DNA of 36,618 nt from the IMG/VR virus record IMGVR_UViG_2602041909_000007. The stretch is one strand, 5' to 3'. This document shows positions 1,338-35,625 of this stretch, in pieces (position 1 is the first letter of the stretch; every line of letters starts with the position of its first letter). Under the pieces are notes generated by a model. It was not told where the DNA came from and did no database searches. It saw only the letters and a list, made by a program, of their open reading frames with translations. The position numbers and the translations under genes are program-made. The stretch is from a virus. Its lineage: Duplodnaviria; Heunggongvirae; Uroviricota; Caudoviricetes.

Positions 1338-1410
1338 GAAGAGGTTTAGCTATTTGAAAATAAATGGATTTTATTTTTAAGTGTCCATATAACGTCCATC
1401 TTTGAATGCA

Positions 1411-1445
1411 AAAAGCCCACAGATTCTATGTTGTGGGCTTTGTTC
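1411..1445. terminator. Bidirectional rho-independent terminator-like hairpin
   Basis: AGCCCACA-gattctatgt-TGTGGGCT stem-loop flanked by A-run upstream and TTTGTTCTT downstream. Confidence 0.5.
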
Positions 1446-1477
1446 TTGGTGTCCTCATGAGTGAGGGAACCAAAAAG

Positions 1478-1506
1478 AAAACCCGCAGTTTTTACGCTGC
1501 GGGTTT
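1478..1506. terminator. Bidirectional rho-independent terminator-like hairpin (likely 3' end of the hok-like transcript on the minus strand)
   Basis: AAACCCGCAG-tttttacg-CTGCGGGTTT stem-loop; minus strand has a long T-run (TTTCTTTTTG) after the stem. Confidence 0.55.
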
Positions 1507-1592
1507 CTGCTTTGGGATGTGTATAGGGTGCCTTATCGACCTTACCCTGGCAACCGATTGACGGGGAAGTTGCCTTCCCCGTCGCGGTTTTC

Positions 1593-1736
1593 TTACTGTC
1601 TACACTGTAAGAACGCCGCAAACTCCGCTCCCCAGAAGCTCATCCGTATCTCGCAGAGCGAACCCCGCAACATCCAGATGATGAGGATTGCCGTCACGCA
1701 CAGTGTGGTGATGGCGATTAGCGATTTTTGCGACAT
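1593..1736 (-). CDS. Hok/Gef-family type I toxin-like small membrane peptide (47 aa)
   Basis: Not in ORF track (<60 aa). My translation: MSQKSLIAITTLCVTAILIIWMLRGSLCEIRMSFWGAEFAAFLQCRQ. One N-terminal TM helix followed by SLCEIR and EFAAF motifs, as in Hok of R1 (…RKSLCEIR…EVAAF…). AGGAG Shine-Dalgarno 9 nt upstream of ATG. Confidence 0.6.
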   Translation of the reverse strand: MSQKSLIAITTLCVTAILIIWMLRGSLCEIRMSFWGAEFAAFLQCRQ

Positions 1737-1839
1737 AGCACTTGCTCCTTTTTCGGAGAGGCGCTAACCTACGACTTGCGAAGGTTGTATGGCTAGGGCC
1801 TCGGGTTAACGTTAAAGTTGACTCGGGGCCTTTCCACAT
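1600..1839 (-). CDS. Mok-like overlapping reading frame (modulator of killing) of the hok-like locus
   Basis: 79-aa ORF in a different frame starting ~100 nt upstream of the hok-like ATG and ending 7 nt past its stop, the characteristic mok/hok overlap geometry; no independent sequence conservation assessed. Confidence 0.35.
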   Translation of the reverse strand: MWKGPESTLTLTRGPSHTTFASRRLAPLRKRSKCYVAKIANRHHHTVRDGNPHHLDVAGFALRDTDELLGSGVCGVLTV

Positions 1840-2403
1840 CCGGCCTTCAGGTATTCCCTCCAGCCATCAGCCGAAAGGCACCCGCGCGAATTCTAGCCTG
1901 GTTTTTTCCCTTGTTTCAATCCGTTGAGGCCTGTCAGTCTTCTGATATAAAATTCCCGACCGCAGACATTATTCAGTCACGCATTTGATACATGCTTCCG
2001 CCGGCGTTCGCGCCGGTTTTTCGTCCTGTTGCTGCATAGATCGTCATGTGCGATCGAGGCGCGGCATTGATCCTTTTTTCAGTTTAATTTCGACTCTCAA
2101 TTTTACGCAGGCCGCGCCGCGTCTGGCTTCGTTGTTTGACGATTTTTCTATGCGATCCTTTCGCGATCGTGTCTTACCCCACGTAAAGCATGAAAACTCT
2201 TTTAATATCATGCGGTTTCGTTGACCCCGCCATTTATGGGATCGTAAAAAACCTCTCTGAAAACTGCAAAAAATTTCAAAACGTGAAATTTCAGATCTTC
2301 GCTTTTCCCTCAGTTGCTGCGCGGGCTGGCGGTCATTTTTGCACGGCAGAAAACTGAAAAAGTGTTTCGACACAAAACCCGCGGGTTGGAGGGGGTAGCG
2401 CGG

Positions 2404-2564: not shown

Positions 2565-4262
2565 TCAGGCGATAAGGTCACAGTATTTTTCGCGCAGGCT
2601 CGTAGCCTGTTGGGCGTCTGCAGCAAGTTCGCTGCTGTTTGTTGGTGCGCCGGTGTTGCTGTGGGTGTGGTTTGCAGTGTGTGTGGCCAGCAACTGAACC
2701 AGATCCAGAATATCAATCAACAACGTCAGCAGATTAAGTCCGGATTTTTCCCGTGAGTCACCGCGACCAATAAATACTGTCGGGGCTGTAAACTCCAGAC
2801 CACCGTCCGCTCGGCATGTTCTGCGACCTCCCACGTTTTCAGTAAGGTCGTGTTCAATCGTGGATGTCGCCCCTTTGAGTTTAGTCAGCAAATCCTGCGC
2901 TACCATCTGGATATGCTCACTGGCTGCGATCGCGTAATGACCGGTAGTAAGGTGCTCTATTTGTCCTGCCATTAGCTTGCTGGTTCCCAGAACGCTGGTT
3001 ATATCGTTTGCCTGTACTGTGGTTGTTCTGGTTGTTGTTGTGCGTTCCTCCTGATCGCTGTTAATGGTTCGCCGGGCTGAATGTTCTCTGATTTGCTGGT
3101 CGGTTTCTCTGTGCCAGCTTCCGTCAGCCGTGACGCGCTGAAACACTTCTGCGCGCTGTTGCTGCAGCTGTTCGCCGGGCTTTACATCAGGCAGGTTATG
3201 GCCAGCGGGTAAGATTTGCCTGATAACGGGTTTGTCCGGACGTCCTTCAATGTTGGATATTTCCACGATGGTGCCTGCCGGTGGGTAGGCAAAACATCCC
3301 GCCTCACTGCCAGCCATGGGGACGGGGAGCGGTACTGCCGGGTAAACGGGCGTGTCGCTTTTATCGTTGCCGTTCTCATCAAGCAACTGCACATCGACGG
3401 CGTAGCGTGGGCGGAAACTGTCGGCCACATCGCCCAGGGTAGTTGGCTCCGTTGGCGCAATGACGCGCGCCAGCCGGGTATGTAGCGTACCGCTGGCCAG
3501 TTCCGGGAACTGTGTTTCCATTTGTCTGCGTAATGGTGATTTGGAAACAGGGTTACCCGTGGCGGTAAGGCGCTCCCATGTCAGGGTCATTTTCTCGTTG
3601 TTGAGGGCTACACGGGTAATGCGCCCGGCCGGTAGGTTCACGCCCGGTCGCACAGTTTCCATAAACATGATGTCGATGCTGTTTCCGCCGCTTTGCCCGA
3701 GTGTGTACTGTTGCGGAATATCCGGCATTGTAATACTGGCAAATCGTGAATCAGCTGCGCTTCCCACAAATACAGAACCGTCCGGCATAGGGTGCCAGAC
3801 GTAATCGCTGATACTGAATGCTCGCCCCAGTTGGCTGAGCAGTTGTGCTCCGCTGCCGCTGTGGGTGATGTAGGGAGTTGGTATACTGGCATAATCCGCA
3901 TCCGGAGTGATAAAAACGATACCGCTTTGTCGCCCCAGATTATCGAGTACCCCCCGCAACGTCGGGTGTTGCATGGAGCAAGGGAAATCAAAATCCAGCA
4001 CAGCAGCCGCTTCACGAATAAAAAGGCGACGTGAGCCATTTTCAGCAGGTTGATCGCGCTCAATGTAGCCGGAGAAATAGCGCCATGCTTCACCGTCACG
4101 GCCGAGATCAATTTGTACCATTGCGCCGGCAAGGCTGTGTTCGGGTGACAGATTGTTAACAGAAATGAAGCCACGACCGGCAGCATTCAGGGTAAGAACA
4201 AGGTTTATATCGGCAATTTCCACCCGTTCGCCATTAATAATACAGCGTTGTATTAATTTCAT
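2565..4262 (-). CDS. Putative baseplate central spike/hub protein (gpV/gpD class, extended, 565 aa)
   Basis: Last gene of tail operon; N-terminus (IINGERVEIADINLVLTLNAAGRGF) resembles OB-fold start of P2 gpV/gpD-type proteins as I recall them; C-terminal HTANHTHS (HxH) resembles metal-binding spike tip. Assignment from memory only. Confidence 0.4.
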   Translation of the reverse strand: MKLIQRCIINGERVEIADINLVLTLNAAGRGFISVNNLSPEHSLAGAMVQIDLGRDGEAWRYFSGYIERDQPAENGSRRLFIREAAAVLDFDFPCSMQHPTLRGVLDNLGRQSGIVFITPDADYASIPTPYITHSGSGAQLLSQLGRAFSISDYVWHPMPDGSVFVGSAADSRFASITMPDIPQQYTLGQSGGNSIDIMFMETVRPGVNLPAGRITRVALNNEKMTLTWERLTATGNPVSKSPLRRQMETQFPELASGTLHTRLARVIAPTEPTTLGDVADSFRPRYAVDVQLLDENGNDKSDTPVYPAVPLPVPMAGSEAGCFAYPPAGTIVEISNIEGRPDKPVIRQILPAGHNLPDVKPGEQLQQQRAEVFQRVTADGSWHRETDQQIREHSARRTINSDQEERTTTTRTTTVQANDITSVLGTSKLMAGQIEHLTTGHYAIAASEHIQMVAQDLLTKLKGATSTIEHDLTENVGGRRTCRADGGLEFTAPTVFIGRGDSREKSGLNLLTLLIDILDLVQLLATHTANHTHSNTGAPTNSSELAADAQQATSLREKYCDLIA

Positions 4263-4834
4263 GTTTTCCCTTCCTTTTTCACGCTCCCGATGCCAATCCA
4301 GTCCAGCCCGGAGCCAATACCATCATTGATATTTTTCCAGAAAGTTTCCTGGGTATTCATTCCTTTATCCGGCGTCAGCTCACTGCCGTTCTGTGTCTGC
4401 TGCTTTGCGATTGTTTTCTGTGAGCCACTGCGTGCCGATGCTTTTTCCGGCACGCTTAATTTTTCCCTGAGAGTAAAGGTGACCTGCCAGTGCATTTTCC
4501 CCTGTTGTTCCGTGGCATCAATGCCACCAGAAAATACCCCCTGTCGCATATTGATTGCCTTCGCGGTAGCGTTGGCAATGCGATACGTTTTTTTAGCTCC
4601 GTTACTTTCTGTTGCCTCCGCAAGCTGAAAAATACGGGTCAGAATAGCTTCATCGTTAAAGTCAATAACCCCCGACACGCGCAGCTCTTTAGCCTTGTTT
4701 CCCTGCTGAGCGCTCGTGGTGCTGGTTGACTGTCCGGACATATCTTTATCCGGTAGTTGCATGGTGGCGCTGACGGTGATGTTGCGCAGCAGAATGGCTT
4801 CCCCGTCAAGCGCAAGGACAATCATCTGGGTCAT
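4259..4834 (-). CDS. Hypothetical tail-associated protein (191 aa)
   Basis: ORF translationally coupled (ATGA-type overlap) to downstream spike/hub gene; position analogous to P2 gpU but no recognisable motif. Confidence 0.35.
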   Translation of the reverse strand: MTQMIVLALDGEAILLRNITVSATMQLPDKDMSGQSTSTTSAQQGNKAKELRVSGVIDFNDEAILTRIFQLAEATESNGAKKTYRIANATAKAINMRQGVFSGGIDATEQQGKMHWQVTFTLREKLSVPEKASARSGSQKTIAKQQTQNGSELTPDKGMNTQETFWKNINDGIGSGLDWIGIGSVKKEGKT

Positions 4835-5555
4835 GTAGTGCTTCCCTTAGTGATGAGAGATCATCGCCGACGAACAGCATCACAGCTGTAAAAACCCACT
4901 CGGGGTGTGGGATGTTTTTTTGTATCAGCGCTGCGGCCTGGCTAAGGACTCCCTTGTAGCAAAAGCGCCACACCGGGCAAAATTTTTGCCGGAGTGCGGC
5001 CTGCTGATCAGCGATTTCCTGTAGAGCTTTATCTCTCGCATTCGCGAACTGACGCAGCTCTGATGACAATGTTTCCGGTGATGTGGCAGCAGGAGTAGCT
5101 GCCTGTGCAATGGTTGCAGCCAGCGACATGCTGCGAGTGGTCTGTGTCGACAGCATTATCGGTTCCGGAAGTGATGTTACCGGTCTGGCGGGGATTTGCA
5201 TTCTGCTGATGGTCAGCGAAAGTTGGCTGGAGATCATACGGGACATTCTCCCTATTTCTGGCAACGGAAATGCACCTGAAAATTGTCTGGCAAGCGATAA
5301 AAACTCAGCAACAGACGGGGCGCAGAATAACATCGCCACGACGTCTTTTTGTGTATTTTCTGTCAGATACGGTAAAAGTGCAGACACTGCATTATCCGGA
5401 CTGAGGTAGCGTCCCGATGGTGTGGTATTCCCTGTATTTACTGACCATGGGTGGAAACAAATCATTGAACTGGTGATGTTTATGGGGTGCGGGTGCAGAA
5501 TTGAGACCGCCCAGTCAGGGCGGTTATTTTTATTGTCTTTCAAATGAATATTCAT
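4806..5555 (-). CDS. Hypothetical protein (249 aa), possibly fiber-associated/chaperone
   Basis: ORF in tail operon between second fiber set and tail hub genes; no motif recognised. Confidence 0.35.
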   Translation of the reverse strand: MNIHLKDNKNNRPDWAVSILHPHPINITSSMICFHPWSVNTGNTTPSGRYLSPDNAVSALLPYLTENTQKDVVAMLFCAPSVAEFLSLARQFSGAFPLPEIGRMSRMISSQLSLTISRMQIPARPVTSLPEPIMLSTQTTRSMSLAATIAQAATPAATSPETLSSELRQFANARDKALQEIADQQAALRQKFCPVWRFCYKGVLSQAAALIQKNIPHPEWVFTAVMLFVGDDLSSLREALHDPDDCPCA

Positions 5556-7534: not shown

Positions 7535-8086
7535 TTAATTCTCGCTAATGTTCTGCGGTAATTCTGGCCATACAATCGCGGCATACGATGCTTTATCTGT
7601 AACCTGGCTGAATGTCATCTCCCGTAACGTTTTTGTATAAATACGGCAGGCTTTCAGTTTTTCCCTGTCTTCGTCGCTGATTAATCCCAGCAGCAGGTCT
7701 TTTTCCCATTCGCTGGTCATGATGCTGACCTGTTTTAACAGTGCATCACGCTCATCTTCCGCTTTAAGTTTGTAGTCGAAGATAAAATTGCCATCGCGGT
7801 AAAACCAGTAACCAGGCACGGTAATACGGCGATTAGCGGTAATATCCGGAACTTCAATAACACTGGCATTACGGGGTTCAATGCCTGTCACATCCTTACC
7901 GACCCACACCACGCGCCCGTCCCCGGTGTAAACCATTTTTATTGTGTCGCTGGCAAAGTTCTTCTGTTCTTCATGCCAGTTTTTGTCGTCTTCCGAAAAA
8001 AGCCAGGTGACACCATATTGTTTTGTCATCTGATATTGTTCTGCGGTTTTCGGATTGCCCGCAGTAATATTTTTTAAATGCAACAT
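7535..8086 (-). CDS. G: Tail fiber assembly protein (P2 gpG/Tfa family)
   Basis: Starts MLHLKNITAGNPKTAEQYQMTK..., strongly reminiscent of P2 gpG ([22 protein letters not shown]...); located directly downstream of fiber gene. Confidence 0.85.
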   Translation of the reverse strand: MLHLKNITAGNPKTAEQYQMTKQYGVTWLFSEDDKNWHEEQKNFASDTIKMVYTGDGRVVWVGKDVTGIEPRNASVIEVPDITANRRITVPGYWFYRDGNFIFDYKLKAEDERDALLKQVSIMTSEWEKDLLLGLISDEDREKLKACRIYTKTLREMTFSQVTDKASYAAIVWPELPQNISEN

Positions 8087-32212: not shown

Positions 32213-32326
32213 TTATTCGTCAGAGAAAAAACGCTCAATCTTTTTCACTGAATGAATAATTCGCATAATGCCAATGGTGCAGACCACCGAAATAATCAGA
32301 ATAAGCCATGATATAAATATACTCAT
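32213..32326 (-). CDS. Small hydrophobic membrane peptide (37 aa)
   Basis: Not in ORF track. My translation MSIFISWLILIISVVCTIGIMRIIHSVKKIERFFSDE; ATG overlaps stop of upstream 80-aa ORF (ATGA), single TM helix then basic tail. Confidence 0.45.
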   Translation of the reverse strand: MSIFISWLILIISVVCTIGIMRIIHSVKKIERFFSDE

Positions 32327-32565
32327 GCGATATTCCCCAGTTTATATGGTTCAATGCGAACCCCGTATTCTGTGTCCCGGACAAGTTCGGAAAGCTCGTT
32401 AATCGCATCCAAATCGTCAGCGTAAAAGGCCACGTCATAAAGGCTTCTGATTGCCCTTGCTAATGAATCATAGGCCGCGTGTTCTGCCTGGACTCCTGAT
32501 GTGTTTAAGCGAAAATGAAAACGCTCAAGTGCTTTATTGACGAGAGTCTTGTATTCCTGGTCCAT
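32323..32565 (-). CDS. Hypothetical early protein (80 aa)
   Basis: ORF in early operon, coupled to small peptide gene downstream. Confidence 0.5.
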   Translation of the reverse strand: MDQEYKTLVNKALERFHFRLNTSGVQAEHAAYDSLARAIRSLYDVAFYADDLDAINELSELVRDTEYGVRIEPYKLGNIA

Positions 32566-32576
32566 TGCAACGCCCT

Positions 32577-32855
32577 TTAATCTGCCTTATGGGTTTCAGC
32601 TTCTGAATCCATACAAATAATTTCGATATAGGGTTCATCGCCATTAACCTGACGTGCCTTTTCAGCTTCGCTAATGATTTCTCGTACGGTCTGATACGGA
32701 AGCTCCACAGTCAGGCGCGTACCGTTCAGATAAACGTAAGTAGCTGCGTTTTTTTCGGATGGAACAACTCCGTCAATGGCTGATGCGCGTAATAACAGTT
32801 CACCGCGAAAATCAATAAAACGGATAAATACACTTTGTGCATGGTCTTTGGTCAT
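32577..32855 (-). CDS. Hypothetical early protein (92 aa)
   Basis: ORF in early operon. Confidence 0.5.
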   Translation of the reverse strand: MTKDHAQSVFIRFIDFRGELLLRASAIDGVVPSEKNAATYVYLNGTRLTVELPYQTVREIISEAEKARQVNGDEPYIEIICMDSEAETHKAD

Positions 32856-32865
32856 AAATCACCTG

Positions 32866-33264
32866 TTATAAATCAGCCTGTTTAATGAAATTCTGTCCGC
32901 GCAGCAGACGATCAACCGTGCGCAGAGCTTCGTACAACGTGAAATCCTGTCCAAACTGATTGTCGCCGTTGCTCAGAGCAAAAATGCGGTTTCCGGTAAA
33001 TGGGTTGCGTTGGCATCTGTGAACCACGATTCCTGCTTTCTCAATTAGCCAGGTGTGTTCACCAATTTGTTTTACGGGATGGCCATCAGGTGTGGCGTGT
33101 GTTTCGCTCAGGCTGTAGCGAGAGCTGCTGCGTGATGCGCTGGTGGCGAAACGGTTAGCGTGGCGTTCCGCCCCGTTGCGGAAGCGTTGCTGTGAAGAAT
33201 TTCGTTGTTGCTTCATACAAAAATATCCTGCTGCTGTTGCGAATTTGTGCCGGGTTTTAGCCAT
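32866..33264 (-). CDS. Hypothetical early protein (132 aa; alternative start at 33216)
   Basis: ORF in early operon; basic N-terminus; start uncertain. Confidence 0.4.
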   Translation of the reverse strand: MAKTRHKFATAAGYFCMKQQRNSSQQRFRNGAERHANRFATSASRSSSRYSLSETHATPDGHPVKQIGEHTWLIEKAGIVVHRCQRNPFTGNRIFALSNGDNQFGQDFTLYEALRTVDRLLRGQNFIKQADL

Positions 33265-33357
33265 GCCCGGCGCATGGTTTTGTGGTATTTTTCCACCGCC
33301 CGCAGTCTTGAAGGGGCTGTAAAGGGCGCGTGTTTAACCAACCACAAAGGAGTTGTT

Positions 33358-33825
33358 ATGGAATTAGATGCTTTTGTGTGTCTGCGAATTTTTGAAAAAC
33401 ACTGCGAGCGAGTTGCTGAATCCTATCGTGATGTGCTGGATAAAGAAACAGCCAACTCAGCATTTGTTGCTACTCGAGCATTAATTCTCCTTAAATTGGA
33501 TTTGCTACTTGTCGAGTATCGAAGAAATATTGATTCCAAGTGTGTAGTCCTCTTCGGAAAAAATGTGCTTTATCATTATCTTTTCACCCAAAAGGGTGTT
33601 TCATTGTCTGATGCCAAAAATATGTGTCTCCATGACATACTTATTGTTCTCTGGAATGATATTAATGCATATGTAATACCAGAGCATGTATCCGAGCGTA
33701 TCCAGATTCTTTATAAGCACGAGCTCTCATCTCCAATGCCTGATTTAAGTTATGAAGATGAAAGTCTGTTGCACTTTAAGGATTCTGCTTGGGATTTTTA
33801 TCCTGCCGATACACGACTGAATTAA
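33358..33825 (+). CDS. Hypothetical AT-rich accessory protein (155 aa), antisense-oriented relative to early operon
   Basis: Strong AAGGAG SD 7 nt upstream of ATG 33358; markedly AT-rich; convergent with and overlapping 3' end of 33776..34384. Confidence 0.55.
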   Translation: MELDAFVCLRIFEKHCERVAESYRDVLDKETANSAFVATRALILLKLDLLLVEYRRNIDSKCVVLFGKNVLYHYLFTQKGVSLSDAKNMCLHDILIVLWNDINAYVIPEHVSERIQILYKHELSSPMPDLSYEDESLLHFKDSAWDFYPADTRLN

Positions 33826-34384
33826 TAAACTCATTGTTTCTATCTATTTCAGCCTGGTAGGCCTCTAACTCATGCCGTAATTGTTGTTGTCTTAGTGGTA
33901 ACCTGTTGCGGCATTTCAATTCTGCTACAACGGTTTCCAAAAAATTTATCAGTTCTTCATCAGTGTATGAGCCAGCATAAATGTACGGTTTAGTGTTAGC
34001 GCATGTACAGTCTGCTGTTTCTTTAATGAGCATTGATTCGTCATCCATAATCTGTCGATAAAGTTCAAATGCTTCTTCGGCAGGAAACCTGAGCATGACG
34101 CCGCATACTGGTTCTAAAACCAATCCGAACGTTCCCTTTGCGTTATCCCGACAAAAATGGCCGTATTCATCGTCGGGATGCAGGGTGGCATCTTTCAAAT
34201 CTTCGCCATTCTGAAGCTTTGATTTAAATGCCATCAGGTCAGCGAACGTTCTGTGTAATTCGTGGTAGTCAATGCTGATTTCAACCTGTGGTTTGCCCGG
34301 AAAAACCAGCAAAAGCTTCTGGTGCGGCTTTTCGTTTTTCAGGGTTTCCAGTCGTTCCAGTAGCGCTTTATTTTTGTGATTCAT
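33776..34384 (-). CDS. Hypothetical accessory protein (202 aa)
   Basis: ORF downstream of cox-like gene; AT-rich (~43% GC by eye); 3' end overlaps the plus-strand 155-aa gene by ~50 bp. Confidence 0.5.
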   Translation of the reverse strand: MNHKNKALLERLETLKNEKPHQKLLLVFPGKPQVEISIDYHELHRTFADLMAFKSKLQNGEDLKDATLHPDDEYGHFCRDNAKGTFGLVLEPVCGVMLRFPAEEAFELYRQIMDDESMLIKETADCTCANTKPYIYAGSYTDEELINFLETVVAELKCRNRLPLRQQQLRHELEAYQAEIDRNNEFINSVVYRQDKNPKQNP

Positions 34385-34582
34385 TCTACTGTTACCTCTT
34401 TTAACTCATTCAGGCAGGGTGATATAACCCACTAACTGCCCGTGTTTGAAATAACGGCGACGAAAGTGATTTGTTATTTGTGTTAAAAATAATTTAGTCA
34501 TTTCAAAGTCCCAGCCACAGCAACCATGCGTCTCGCTATTCTTTCTGGCGAGCAAAGAATACTTCGACGCTCTTGATGTTGT

Positions 34583-35110
34583 TTATGATAAATCGCTCTC
34601 GTGATCTCTGCGTTTTTCCAGTTTTGAACTTCTACCCATATAAACCCGTTTTCCGTTAACGGTCTGGCAATCTTCTTTGTCGACTGGTGCGAACTTTCTT
34701 TTCTGGCGGTCATACGTCCAGTAACTTTTCCAGTTGTGCCATTCCGGGGGTTCGCACTCTGGTAGCTCATCAGCCAACTTGTCCCACTCTTTGGCGTTAA
34801 ACCACCATACGCCGTCTGAGTTTTCATCTTCCGGGTTTGTGCGCGTCTTGTGTCCCGGCATTTGACCGCGATGAATGGCTACGCGCAGTGCAGATTTTGT
34901 TAGCCCAATATATGCCGCGCCTTTTTCCAGAGAGCAAAGCCCGGCGATCGGACCATCCAGCCGCAAAGTCGCTCCTTTTTTGTAGGAACGCTTTTTCTTG
35001 TTTTCTTCGTGCTCGTCGTCGTTGGCGGCATCAATGGATCCGCTGAGTGCGTCACTTTCCTGAAGTGGTTGGTGGTCAGATAACTCTTTATCGGCAATGA
35101 AGTCCCGCAT
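34583..35110 (-). CDS. Cox/Apl-like excisionase-regulator with acidic N-terminal extension (175 aa)
   Basis: Divergent from repressor gene; HTH segment LEKGAAYIGLTKSALRVAIHRGQMP and GVWWFNAKEWDKL resemble P2 Cox (…KSTGAVRRMIDKGKLP…EYWVYLPAWNNGL); start codon uncertain. Confidence 0.45.
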   Translation of the reverse strand: MRDFIADKELSDHQPLQESDALSGSIDAANDDEHEENKKKRSYKKGATLRLDGPIAGLCSLEKGAAYIGLTKSALRVAIHRGQMPGHKTRTNPEDENSDGVWWFNAKEWDKLADELPECEPPEWHNWKSYWTYDRQKRKFAPVDKEDCQTVNGKRVYMGRSSKLEKRRDHESDLS

Positions 35111-35169
35111 TTGTTATCCTCTTGCGTTGGTGCGCTTGTCGCGCCTTGTGATGGTTTGTTTTGGCTTGT

Positions 35170-35226
35170 AAAGATAACCAAAAGGTTATCTTTGTGCGAG
35201 AGGTTAATACTCAAATGGTTATCTTG
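35170..35226. promoter_or_regulatory. Candidate repressor operator: perfect 10-bp inverted repeat plus third direct half-site at repressor start codon
   Basis: AAAGATAACC-aaaa-GGTTATCTTT at 35170-35193; GGTTATCTTG at 35217-35226 overlapping ATG of C-like gene; located in divergent cox/C intergenic region. Confidence 0.5.
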
Positions 35227-35556
35227 TCAATAGACTACGCAAAAAAGTTACGTCAGATACGTAAGGCGGAAGGGTTAACACAAAAGCAGTTTGCGGATAT
35301 TACTGGGTTGTCTTTGGCAACCATAAGGAATTACGAATCGGGGCAAAAGAACGCTAGAGCAAAAATCGTTGAGGCGGTTCTGCAAGTCGATCGCTTTGAA
35401 AAATACATGCTGTGGCTAATAAAAGATAAGACGCTACCTGTCGCCGGGCAGATTGCTCCGGCTCTCTCTCTTGATGGATCTATTCAGTCGGAGGGCGATC
35501 AGGTTTCAATCGGTATTACCCAAAAATCACCCCGATCAGGCCGCAATGTTGGCTGA
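35215..35556 (+). CDS. C: Immunity repressor, P2 C-type HTH (XRE-like) (113 aa)
   Basis: HTH LTQKQFADITGLSLATIRNYESGQ; C-terminal KYMLWLIKDKTLPVAGQIAPALS resembles P2 C (KYTLWFMTNQIAPESGQIAPALA) as recalled; start set at ATG 35215. Confidence 0.75.
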   Translation: MVILSIDYAKKLRQIRKAEGLTQKQFADITGLSLATIRNYESGQKNARAKIVEAVLQVDRFEKYMLWLIKDKTLPVAGQIAPALSLDGSIQSEGDQVSIGITQKSPRSGRNVG

Positions 35557-35625
35557 CTCTACACATTGAGCGAATTACATATCGCAAGGAGTGTTTAGTT
35601 AATTTATCCGTTGGAGGGGCTAATC

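Follow-up and report, generated by a model that had tools for sequence, protein, structure and literature searches.

What is a pair of convergent, 3′-overlapping genes doing in the early operon of a temperate phage, where one of the two is read against lytic transcription? The question arises at the right end of IMG/VR record IMGVR_UViG_2602041909_000007 (36,618 nt; this whole stretch is called the window), which holds the immunity and early region of a P2-like (Peduoviridae) prophage. Here a plus-strand gene of the ECs1072 family, encoding 155 amino acids (aa), meets tail to tail a minus-strand early gene encoding a 202-aa protein, whose C-terminal third we call the partner domain. The ECs1072 gene and the partner-domain coding region are foreign in base composition, present or absent among syntenic prophages, strictly co-occurring, and constant in orientation at two positions in P2-like prophages. 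As a tentative reading, we propose that they form a mobile two-gene cassette beside the immunity switch, which would give the lysogen an effector and the early operon a partner that silences or neutralizes that effector.

The first-pass annotation had described a 155-aa gene with an AAGGAG Shine-Dalgarno sequence running antisense to the early operon and overlapping the 202-aa gene by about 50 bp. This anatomy was confirmed, the overlap being exactly 50 bp: the plus-strand gene shares its direction with the repressor and integrase genes, and the early operon occupies the minus strand from cox onward. Both open reading frames (ORFs) are real genes rather than chance ORFs, and homologous clusters number 32 for the N-terminal part of the 202-aa protein and 28 for its C-terminal part. 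The chromosome of Escherichia coli E300010 holds an identical stretch, in which the Prokaryotic Genome Annotation Pipeline (PGAP) calls both genes with unchanged coordinates and names the plus-strand gene 'ECs1072 family phage-associated protein'.

Base composition sets the locus apart. The 1027-bp span of the pair falls in the lowest 0.2% of equal-length windows in the stretch for guanine plus cytosine (GC) content, and the GC minimum of the 36.6-kb window lies at ~33450, inside the plus-strand gene. GC content is 0.378 for this gene (0.31 at third codon positions, GC3) and 0.424 for the 202-aa gene, compared with 0.519 for the whole window. The proposal that both genes are AT-rich held, with the refinement that in the minus-strand gene only the 3′ third is strongly so (0.394); its 5′ two thirds (0.445) resemble the adjoining early genes. 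Foreign, accessory DNA, as first suggested, agrees with the lowest GC content of the window and with the finding that the cassette is missing or swapped for unrelated cargo in syntenic prophages; the presence/absence comparison that had been recommended revealed other cargo in loci L003, L004, L005 and L072 and an empty slot in L073. The possibility that the two ORFs are conserved core early genes with ordinary GC content was not borne out.

Comparison with two related loci delimited the unit that moves. Homology to L002, which carries cox, a 91-aa partner gene and ECs1072, covers 32800-34024 and 34562-35200, and homology to L003, which carries cox, the spacer, a 135-aa gene and an unrelated 60-aa plus-strand gene, covers 32800-33351 and 34049-35200. 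Because of these breakpoints, the cassette is placed at about 33352-34024/34048, a length of ~0.7 kb. The backbone genes DUF4754/DUF4761 occur in 1402 of 5426 complete E. coli genomes, two of which match at least 80% of a 3.3-kb query (32300-35600). A tblastn search of 50,697 phage genomes gave no match, and a one-genome-per-species collection, searched with an alignment of closer ECs1072 relatives, yielded a single locus. The original idea of an acquired pair therefore holds in that the two frames are co-inherited, but not in that two whole genes were acquired, as the unit takes in no more of the minus-strand protein than its C-terminal ~75 aa.

The 202-aa protein is, judging by homology, an in-frame recombinant fusion with its junction at residues ~112-120, because residues 1 to ~115 correspond to the resident post-cox gene; the N-terminal ~60% of the protein is ~80% identical to a 135-aa protein encoded 3′ of cox in many related prophages. 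The fusion recurs, its cluster comprising 34 sequences with a representative 97% identical. Residues ~128-202 carry the motif P-x-I-[FY]-A-G-S-x-x-D-E-E-L-I-x-F-L-E ... N-E-F-I-N-S-V-V-Y-R-Q. Homologues of this partner domain occur as stand-alone 79-aa and 91-aa proteins, as the C-terminus of 153-aa proteins behind another N-terminal domain, and N-terminally in 132-174-aa proteins. The structural model of the 202-aa protein consists of an alpha/beta N-domain, a disordered linker (residues 125-136; predicted local distance difference test score, pLDDT, <50) and a single long helix (142-196), and the C-terminal tail is predicted to be unstructured. The long helix, together with the varied N-terminal fusions, fits a binding or adaptor module. 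A PDB search with this protein returned coiled-coil noise only, and PADLOC-DB 2.0 gave no match.

Hidden Markov models of both families were built and run over all fetched loci. All 19 P2-like loci found via an ECs1072 homologue (L006-L024) encode the partner domain on the other strand in a convergent, 3′-overlapping layout, and the partner is intact in 18 of them. The pair takes one of two positions, either between repressor and cox (L006-L013, L018-L022, L028-L030) or between cox and DUF4761 (the window, L002 and Yersinia). In all cases the ECs1072 gene precedes the repressor gene in the same orientation and converges with the early promoter, Pe. The partner is tied to lytic expression: in L007 and L028 it comes first after Pe, and in L002 its start overlaps the end of cox. 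L031/L032 carry the partner domain but no ECs1072; no case of ECs1072 without the partner domain was found among the P2-like loci. Because the pair recurs in other prophage lineages with constant orientation, it is an accessory module and not a chance overlap, as far as genome architecture can show.

Current annotation hides this pairing: the partner gene is unannotated in L002 (4577-4852), in L006 and L008 (5407-5868 in both) and in E. coli Sakai. ECs1072 seems a lone gene in several public records because the annotation misses its partner. Strain CFIAFB20180511 (H8) was one such candidate for a solitary ECs1072, which we rejected as an annotation gap since the 91-aa partner ORF is present.

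The overlap itself is exactly 50 nt in five lineages, namely the window, E. coli L002, Yersinia L025, the Enterobacter/Salmonella 153-aa type and the 79-aa type (50 nt was seen in L007, L012, L025 and L028), and 74-104 nt in three distant lineages (L022-L024). Across seven lineages, nucleotide conservation of the module peaks in the overlap (0.84-0.91 versus 0.5-0.75 elsewhere), in keeping with dual coding, and the NEFINSVVxRQ motif is kept in partner-domain proteins without ECs1072 opposite (P0099-P0101); for these two reasons both frames appear constrained. The partner domain is 30-47% identical across lineages 5′ of the overlap.

A comparable arrangement is found at the type gene. In prophage Sp4 of O157 Sakai, ECs1072 (ECs_5703) is flanked by the cII-like and O genes; it runs against the early-right operon, in the direction of cI, and faces an unannotated convergent ORF (L037 39117-39677) with the sequence P-H-I-W-R-G-G-L-S-D-V-E-L-A-E-W-L. 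ORFs of this type have ~170-187 codons (also L040 3143-3703 and L069 3146-3706) and overlap ECs1072 by ~311-317 nt; the ORF is still open in a relative whose ECs1072 protein is 74% identical, and its partner-like motif lies in the non-overlapping N-terminus. It is possible that this ORF is a long overlapping gene.

These comparisons bear on the explanation that two unrelated morons merely abut, the minus-strand ORF reading to the first stop in the antisense of ECs1072 with no coupling between the two. The most conserved ECs1072 motif lies opposite the final ~16 residues of the partner, which are perhaps passively conserved, and the C-terminal tail is predicted to lack structure, as this explanation would allow. 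However, conservation of the partner domain extends 5′ of the overlap, the domain is paired with ECs1072 at two insertion positions in P2-like prophages, the lambdoid type gene is met by a similar convergent ORF whose motif resembles that of the partner, and NEFINSVVxRQ persists where ECs1072 is absent, so that we regard an incidental meeting of the two genes as very unlikely.

Features of the overlapping pair, its surroundings and the equivalent slots of related loci (coordinates are those of the window unless a locus is named)
Feature	Position	Strand	Remarks
ECs1072-family gene, 155 aa	33358-33825	+	ATG at 33358; NF033230, phrog_5286, PGAP
202-aa gene	33776-34384	-	ORF; PGAP
Dual-coding 3′ overlap, 50 bp	33776-33825	both	ECs1072 ends in ...KDSAWDFYPADTRLN and stop (+); partner ends in ...NSVVYRQDKNPKQNP and stop (-)
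Shine-Dalgarno AAGGAG	33347-33352	+	5 nt 5′ of the ECs1072-family ATG; read from sequence
Partner domain, C-terminal third of 202-aa protein	33776-34024	-	homology to L002 stops at 34024
Resident N-terminal domain of 202-aa protein	34049-34384	-	homology to L003 begins at 34049
Non-coding spacer, cox to 202-aa gene, 198 bp	34385-34582	-	context, outside the cassette
cox, 175 aa, first gene of early operon	34583-35110	-	PF10743, phrog_23196, PGAP
Helix-turn-helix repressor	35215-35556	+	
Integrase	from 35611/35626	+	
DUF4761 gene	32866-33216	-	
GC-rich hairpin, T-rich tract, TGnTAnTTT (extended -10-like)	33247-33292	+	~66 nt upstream of ECs1072 start
TGGTATTTT	33284-33292		within the conserved element
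L003 slot	4157-4747		+ gene 60 aa; - gene 135 aa
JJ2434 (L072) slot	1355-1975		+ gene 63 aa; - gene 140 aa
L004 / L005 slot	L004 2654-3466		+ gene 155 aa, unrelated; - gene 117 aa
SEN5 (L036) slot	2608-3288		+ gene 60 aa; - gene 158 aa
L033 slot, as annotated	4001-4681		+ gene 151 aa; - gene 71 aa
L031 slot, as annotated	4001-4640		+ gene 174 aa; - gene 63 aa
L073 slot			+ gene none, empty slot; - gene 68 aa

The plus-strand protein belongs to a named family. It matched NF033230 with 112.6 bits (E 1.5e-32; curated cut-off 70 bits), residues 8-154 aligning to positions 3-141 of the 142-position profile, and it also falls in phrog_5286. The earlier remark that neither protein carries a recognizable motif thus stands as to function, but not for family membership of this protein. 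The family is represented by 36 clusters among 1.84 billion proteins, all of 140-200 aa, with the motifs R-A-L-x-x-x-K-L-D-x-L-L, a G-K-N-A-L stretch and a C-terminal D-x-E-W-D-P (D-x-x-W-D); W145 is invariant across 28 members. The AlphaFold2 (AF2) model is confident and all-alpha (pLDDT 81, predicted template modeling score, pTM, 0.81), and the protein is acidic, with an isoelectric point (pI) of 5.3. The window protein resembles the type protein of NF033230/phrog_5286 (ECs1072, now ECs_5703, of Sakai Sp4) in length class (145-160 aa), in its motifs and in being encoded antisense to an early lytic operon. It differs in lying beyond BLASTP reach of the Sakai protein, in being encoded by a P2-like rather than a lambdoid prophage, and in a convergent partner that is absent from the annotation of several records (L002 and Sakai) and from the papers searched.

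Function searches returned little. Pfam, NCBIfam, PADLOC and PHROGs, searched with both proteins, gave two families of unknown function and nothing else, and no match to an exclusion, toxin-antitoxin, defense or anti-defense class was found in Pfam, PADLOC, PDB or BFVD. For the 155-aa protein, no structural relatives were found, PADLOC-DB 2.0 yielded chance-level Cas7f matches alone (E 0.008-0.014), and Pfam scans of 28 ECs1072 relatives taken individually gave no consistent weak match. Inspection by eye revealed no LexA box, HEPN Rx4-6H motif or HD motif. The literature on ECs1072 found here consists of one microarray table, with no functional study: the gene is among those differentially expressed in a growth-transition microarray of Sakai, in which no prophage induction was reported (PMC2241611).

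ECs1072 should be expressible unopposed in the lysogen because Pe is repressed there, and activity of Pe should silence it because early transcription crosses the whole gene to reach the replication genes. In the reading that we tentatively favor, the repressor would shut Pe in the lysogen, so that only ECs1072 would be made, from its own upstream region, acting as an accessory (moron) effector that most probably excludes or aborts other phages. On induction or infection, strong transcription from Pe would run head-on through ECs1072 and cause transcriptional interference, and sense/antisense pairing over the shared 3′ end could add to the silencing. The Pe transcript would also yield the coiled-coil partner, which may bind or neutralize ECs1072 protein already present, with the outcome that the phage's own lytic cycle would be spared. 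From its position, turnover, rarity and composition, the role of ECs1072 is most likely exclusion of, or defense against, other phages; this role, like the timing of expression and the protein-protein neutralization, is one that we infer.

Several observations weigh against this model. A consensus σ70 scan found no convincing ECs1072 promoter, the putative promoter consists of nothing beyond an extended -10-like motif, and the scan 3′ of ECs1072 found no terminator. The Sakai ORF matches the partner domain weakly (hhalign E 0.005, probability 6.7%). In addition, linkage partly forces the co-occurrence of adjoining, overlapping genes, and many of the loci are near-identical. Finally, in Brenneria rubrifaciens (L014) an intact ECs1072 gene sits beside a partner split by IS21, the other half of which lies at 7625-7786, a case compatible with the model only if the lysogen can do without the partner. 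The IS21-family element (istA/istB) occupies L014 5574-7540, between ECs1072 and cox on the one side and the repressor and Pe on the other. A TTGAAG/TTTAAC promoter candidate for ECs1072 picked manually was dropped, as it is without key -10 positions.

The Brenneria locus also bears on a toxin-antitoxin (TA) or addiction module, in which ECs1072 would be a growth-inhibiting toxin and the coiled-coil partner its protein antitoxin, serving prophage stabilization or abortive infection independently of the switch. Two small, strictly linked genes on an AT-rich, mobile and rare stretch would suit such a module, as would a partner that is a simple helix compatible with a binder and whose domain, antitoxin-like, occurs without ECs1072 but not vice versa. 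However, Brenneria retains ECs1072 beside a disrupted partner, and more generally the partner relies on the repressed early promoter, leaving the supposed toxin unopposed in the lysogen. The genes are convergent on opposite strands rather than in the shared operon of a type II system, and neither matches a known toxin or antitoxin family in Pfam, NCBIfam or PADLOC, which together make a TA module unlikely.

The wiring could also be the reverse of the one we favor, with the partner as the active factor in host takeover or anti-defense and ECs1072 as a lysogen-made inhibitor or immunity factor, countering leaky expression or superinfecting relatives that encode this early protein too. The partner is gene 1 or 2 of the early operon and exists without ECs1072. 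In L002, the start codon of the 91-aa partner and the stop codon of cox overlap (ATGA, 4849-4852), which suggests that the partner is translationally coupled to cox. Against this, a single helix of ~55 residues to which any N-terminus may be fused is unlikely to act as an effector by itself, and ECs1072 is the larger, globular and better conserved protein; we consider reverse wiring highly improbable.

A further question for the cassette model is what occupies the same slot in relatives that lack the pair. The other occupants are mostly convergent pairs too (Table); L033 and L031 were fetched in reverse, so that their larger plus-strand gene is the early-operon gene and the smaller minus-strand gene reads toward the repressor. 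These cargo proteins gave no match in Pfam or PADLOC. Across the slot cargos, the 3′ end of the early-operon gene changes jointly with the opposite-strand gene, and one N-terminal domain (in the 153-aa and 151-aa families) is found with different C-termini. The covarying pairs suggest a general cassette principle. The broader claim that they represent a new class of modules straddling the switch, with a lysogen-only effector, an early-operon protein antidote and an obligatory dual-coding 3′ overlap, such that head-on transcription and antidote synthesis would together disarm the effector once the prophage turns lytic, and that the slot cargos are further families at a hitherto unrecognized hotspot of paired accessory genes at the C/cox switch of P2-like phages, strikes us as doubtful.

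Slot occupancy is also informative about whether the pair acts on the lysis-lysogeny decision itself, in the manner of lambda oop or 186 pE/pL. Plus-strand transcription would then hinder early transcription and feed the repressor and integrase genes, and ECs1072 would be a switch regulator. The constant placement of ECs1072 upstream of and in line with the repressor gene, convergent with Pe, speaks for such a device. The Sakai Sp4 copy, in the cII-like/O slot, even occupies the position of oop in lambda (PMC7067206), and the 3′ overlap with an early gene recalls oop/cII. However, one module serves phages with different repressors, and protein sequence is conserved well beyond the overlap, arguing for a protein function. 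Because close relatives with the same cox and repressor hold unrelated cargo or none, the cassette is not needed for the switch, and a regulatory device is improbable.

The pair is best classed as prophage moron cargo of unusual convergent, switch-straddling, dual-coding design, with the deviating base composition (GC 0.38 versus 0.519) and the presence or absence between conserved neighbors that mark morons. Genes that run against lytic operons are a typical kind of accessory locus in prophages (PMC7067206). The main P2 defense hotspots lie at gpA-gpQ and Z/fun, in a study that never mentions cox (Rousset et al. 2022, PMC9122126), and a 2026 survey reports the integrase-primase interval as a minor hotspot with 8% of P2 systems (PMC13586616). 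The window locus, between cox and DUF4761 on the int side of gpA, is outside the first two and within the third. Like the P2-like morons and hotspots (tin/old at gpA-gpQ, and Z/fun), it is small and AT-rich, shows high turnover between conserved genes, faces against the lytic genes and is polymorphic in presence among syntenic prophages. Unlike them, it adjoins the C/cox switch, its cargo unit takes in the 3′ end of an early-operon gene, and none of the cargo seen in this slot matches a known defense family.

Two kinds of known system invite comparison with the proposed logic. Type I TA pairs such as txpA/RatA and bsrG/SR4 have convergent transcripts with a 3′ overlap, as does lambda oop/cII, one member belonging to an early or toxic gene and the other being read against it. 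The genes of the window pair are likewise convergent, and their coding regions overlap by 50 nt, but both strands encode conserved, soluble proteins (155 aa; 75 aa or more). Neither product is a non-coding RNA or a small hydrophobic peptide. The BstA/aba locus of BTP1-like prophages is a defense system with built-in self-immunity. The likeness there is one of concept, a lysogen-expressed effector that would harm the lytic cycle of its own phage being paired with a cis-linked antidote that takes effect at induction; BstA has no sequence or structural relation to the window pair, and aba is a DNA element whereas the proposed antidote here would be an early-operon protein plus head-on transcription. 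The bstA locus is mentioned in PMC7067206.

Prophage cargo slots are a productive source of new anti-phage and counter-defense systems, and the C/cox-adjoining slot, which is not among the hotspots of Rousset et al. (2022), holds cargo without a known-family match. If the cassette model is true, the module illustrates how prophages can harbor a weapon harmful to their own lytic growth, and it supplies a search rule for more systems, namely convergent, 3′-overlapping pairs that straddle the switch. The module is compact and easily cloned, and its logic is testable.

At the left border of the slot lies a conserved hairpin element, TGCCGGG-TTTTAGCCATGCCCGGCGCATGG-TTTTGTGGTATTTT, of 26-45 nt and almost invariant. 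In many P2-like prophages it separates the plus-strand cargo gene from the start of the next early gene. Of the 36 loci compared, 24 share an identical 26-nt core, several different cargos being represented among them, and TGnTAnTTT is invariant in the alignment; the element is identical even between phages whose proteins share only ~45% identity. The Brenneria copy shows a paired change, CCACGC...GCGTGG. The predicted RNA fold of the plus strand has -25 kcal/mol (z -3.4), compared with z -1.7 for the minus strand. One copy is present in the window (0 expected), and others are in L007 (4893-4935), L036 (2501-2546), L035 (2501-2545) and L025 (~4770-4815, minus strand); the L072 and L073 slots lack it. 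Rfam gave no match over 32800-35300. We rejected the hairpin as part of the ECs1072 cassette, since it also borders unrelated cargos and some slots lack it. It could be a terminator or insulator combined with a cargo promoter, a protein-binding palindrome, or a recombination boundary.

The neighboring genes give the context of the cassette. The direction of early transcription is fixed by cox, which itself lies outside the cassette, and the operon runs on the minus strand from cox through the 202-aa gene, DUF4761, a 92-aa gene and DUF4754 and on to the replication endonuclease. The DUF4761 gene has an ambiguous start: PGAP places the ATG at 33216 (116 aa), versus a longer ORF with its ATG at 33264 (132 aa; 32866-33264) that would overrun the conserved hairpin. 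Within the spacer between cox and the 202-aa gene, positions 34503-34545 match by blastn the 3′ end of a short-type cox (L007 4583-4625; L073 4252-4292), a relic that is the scar of a past module exchange. The same spacer contains a 49-aa ORF at 34406-34555.

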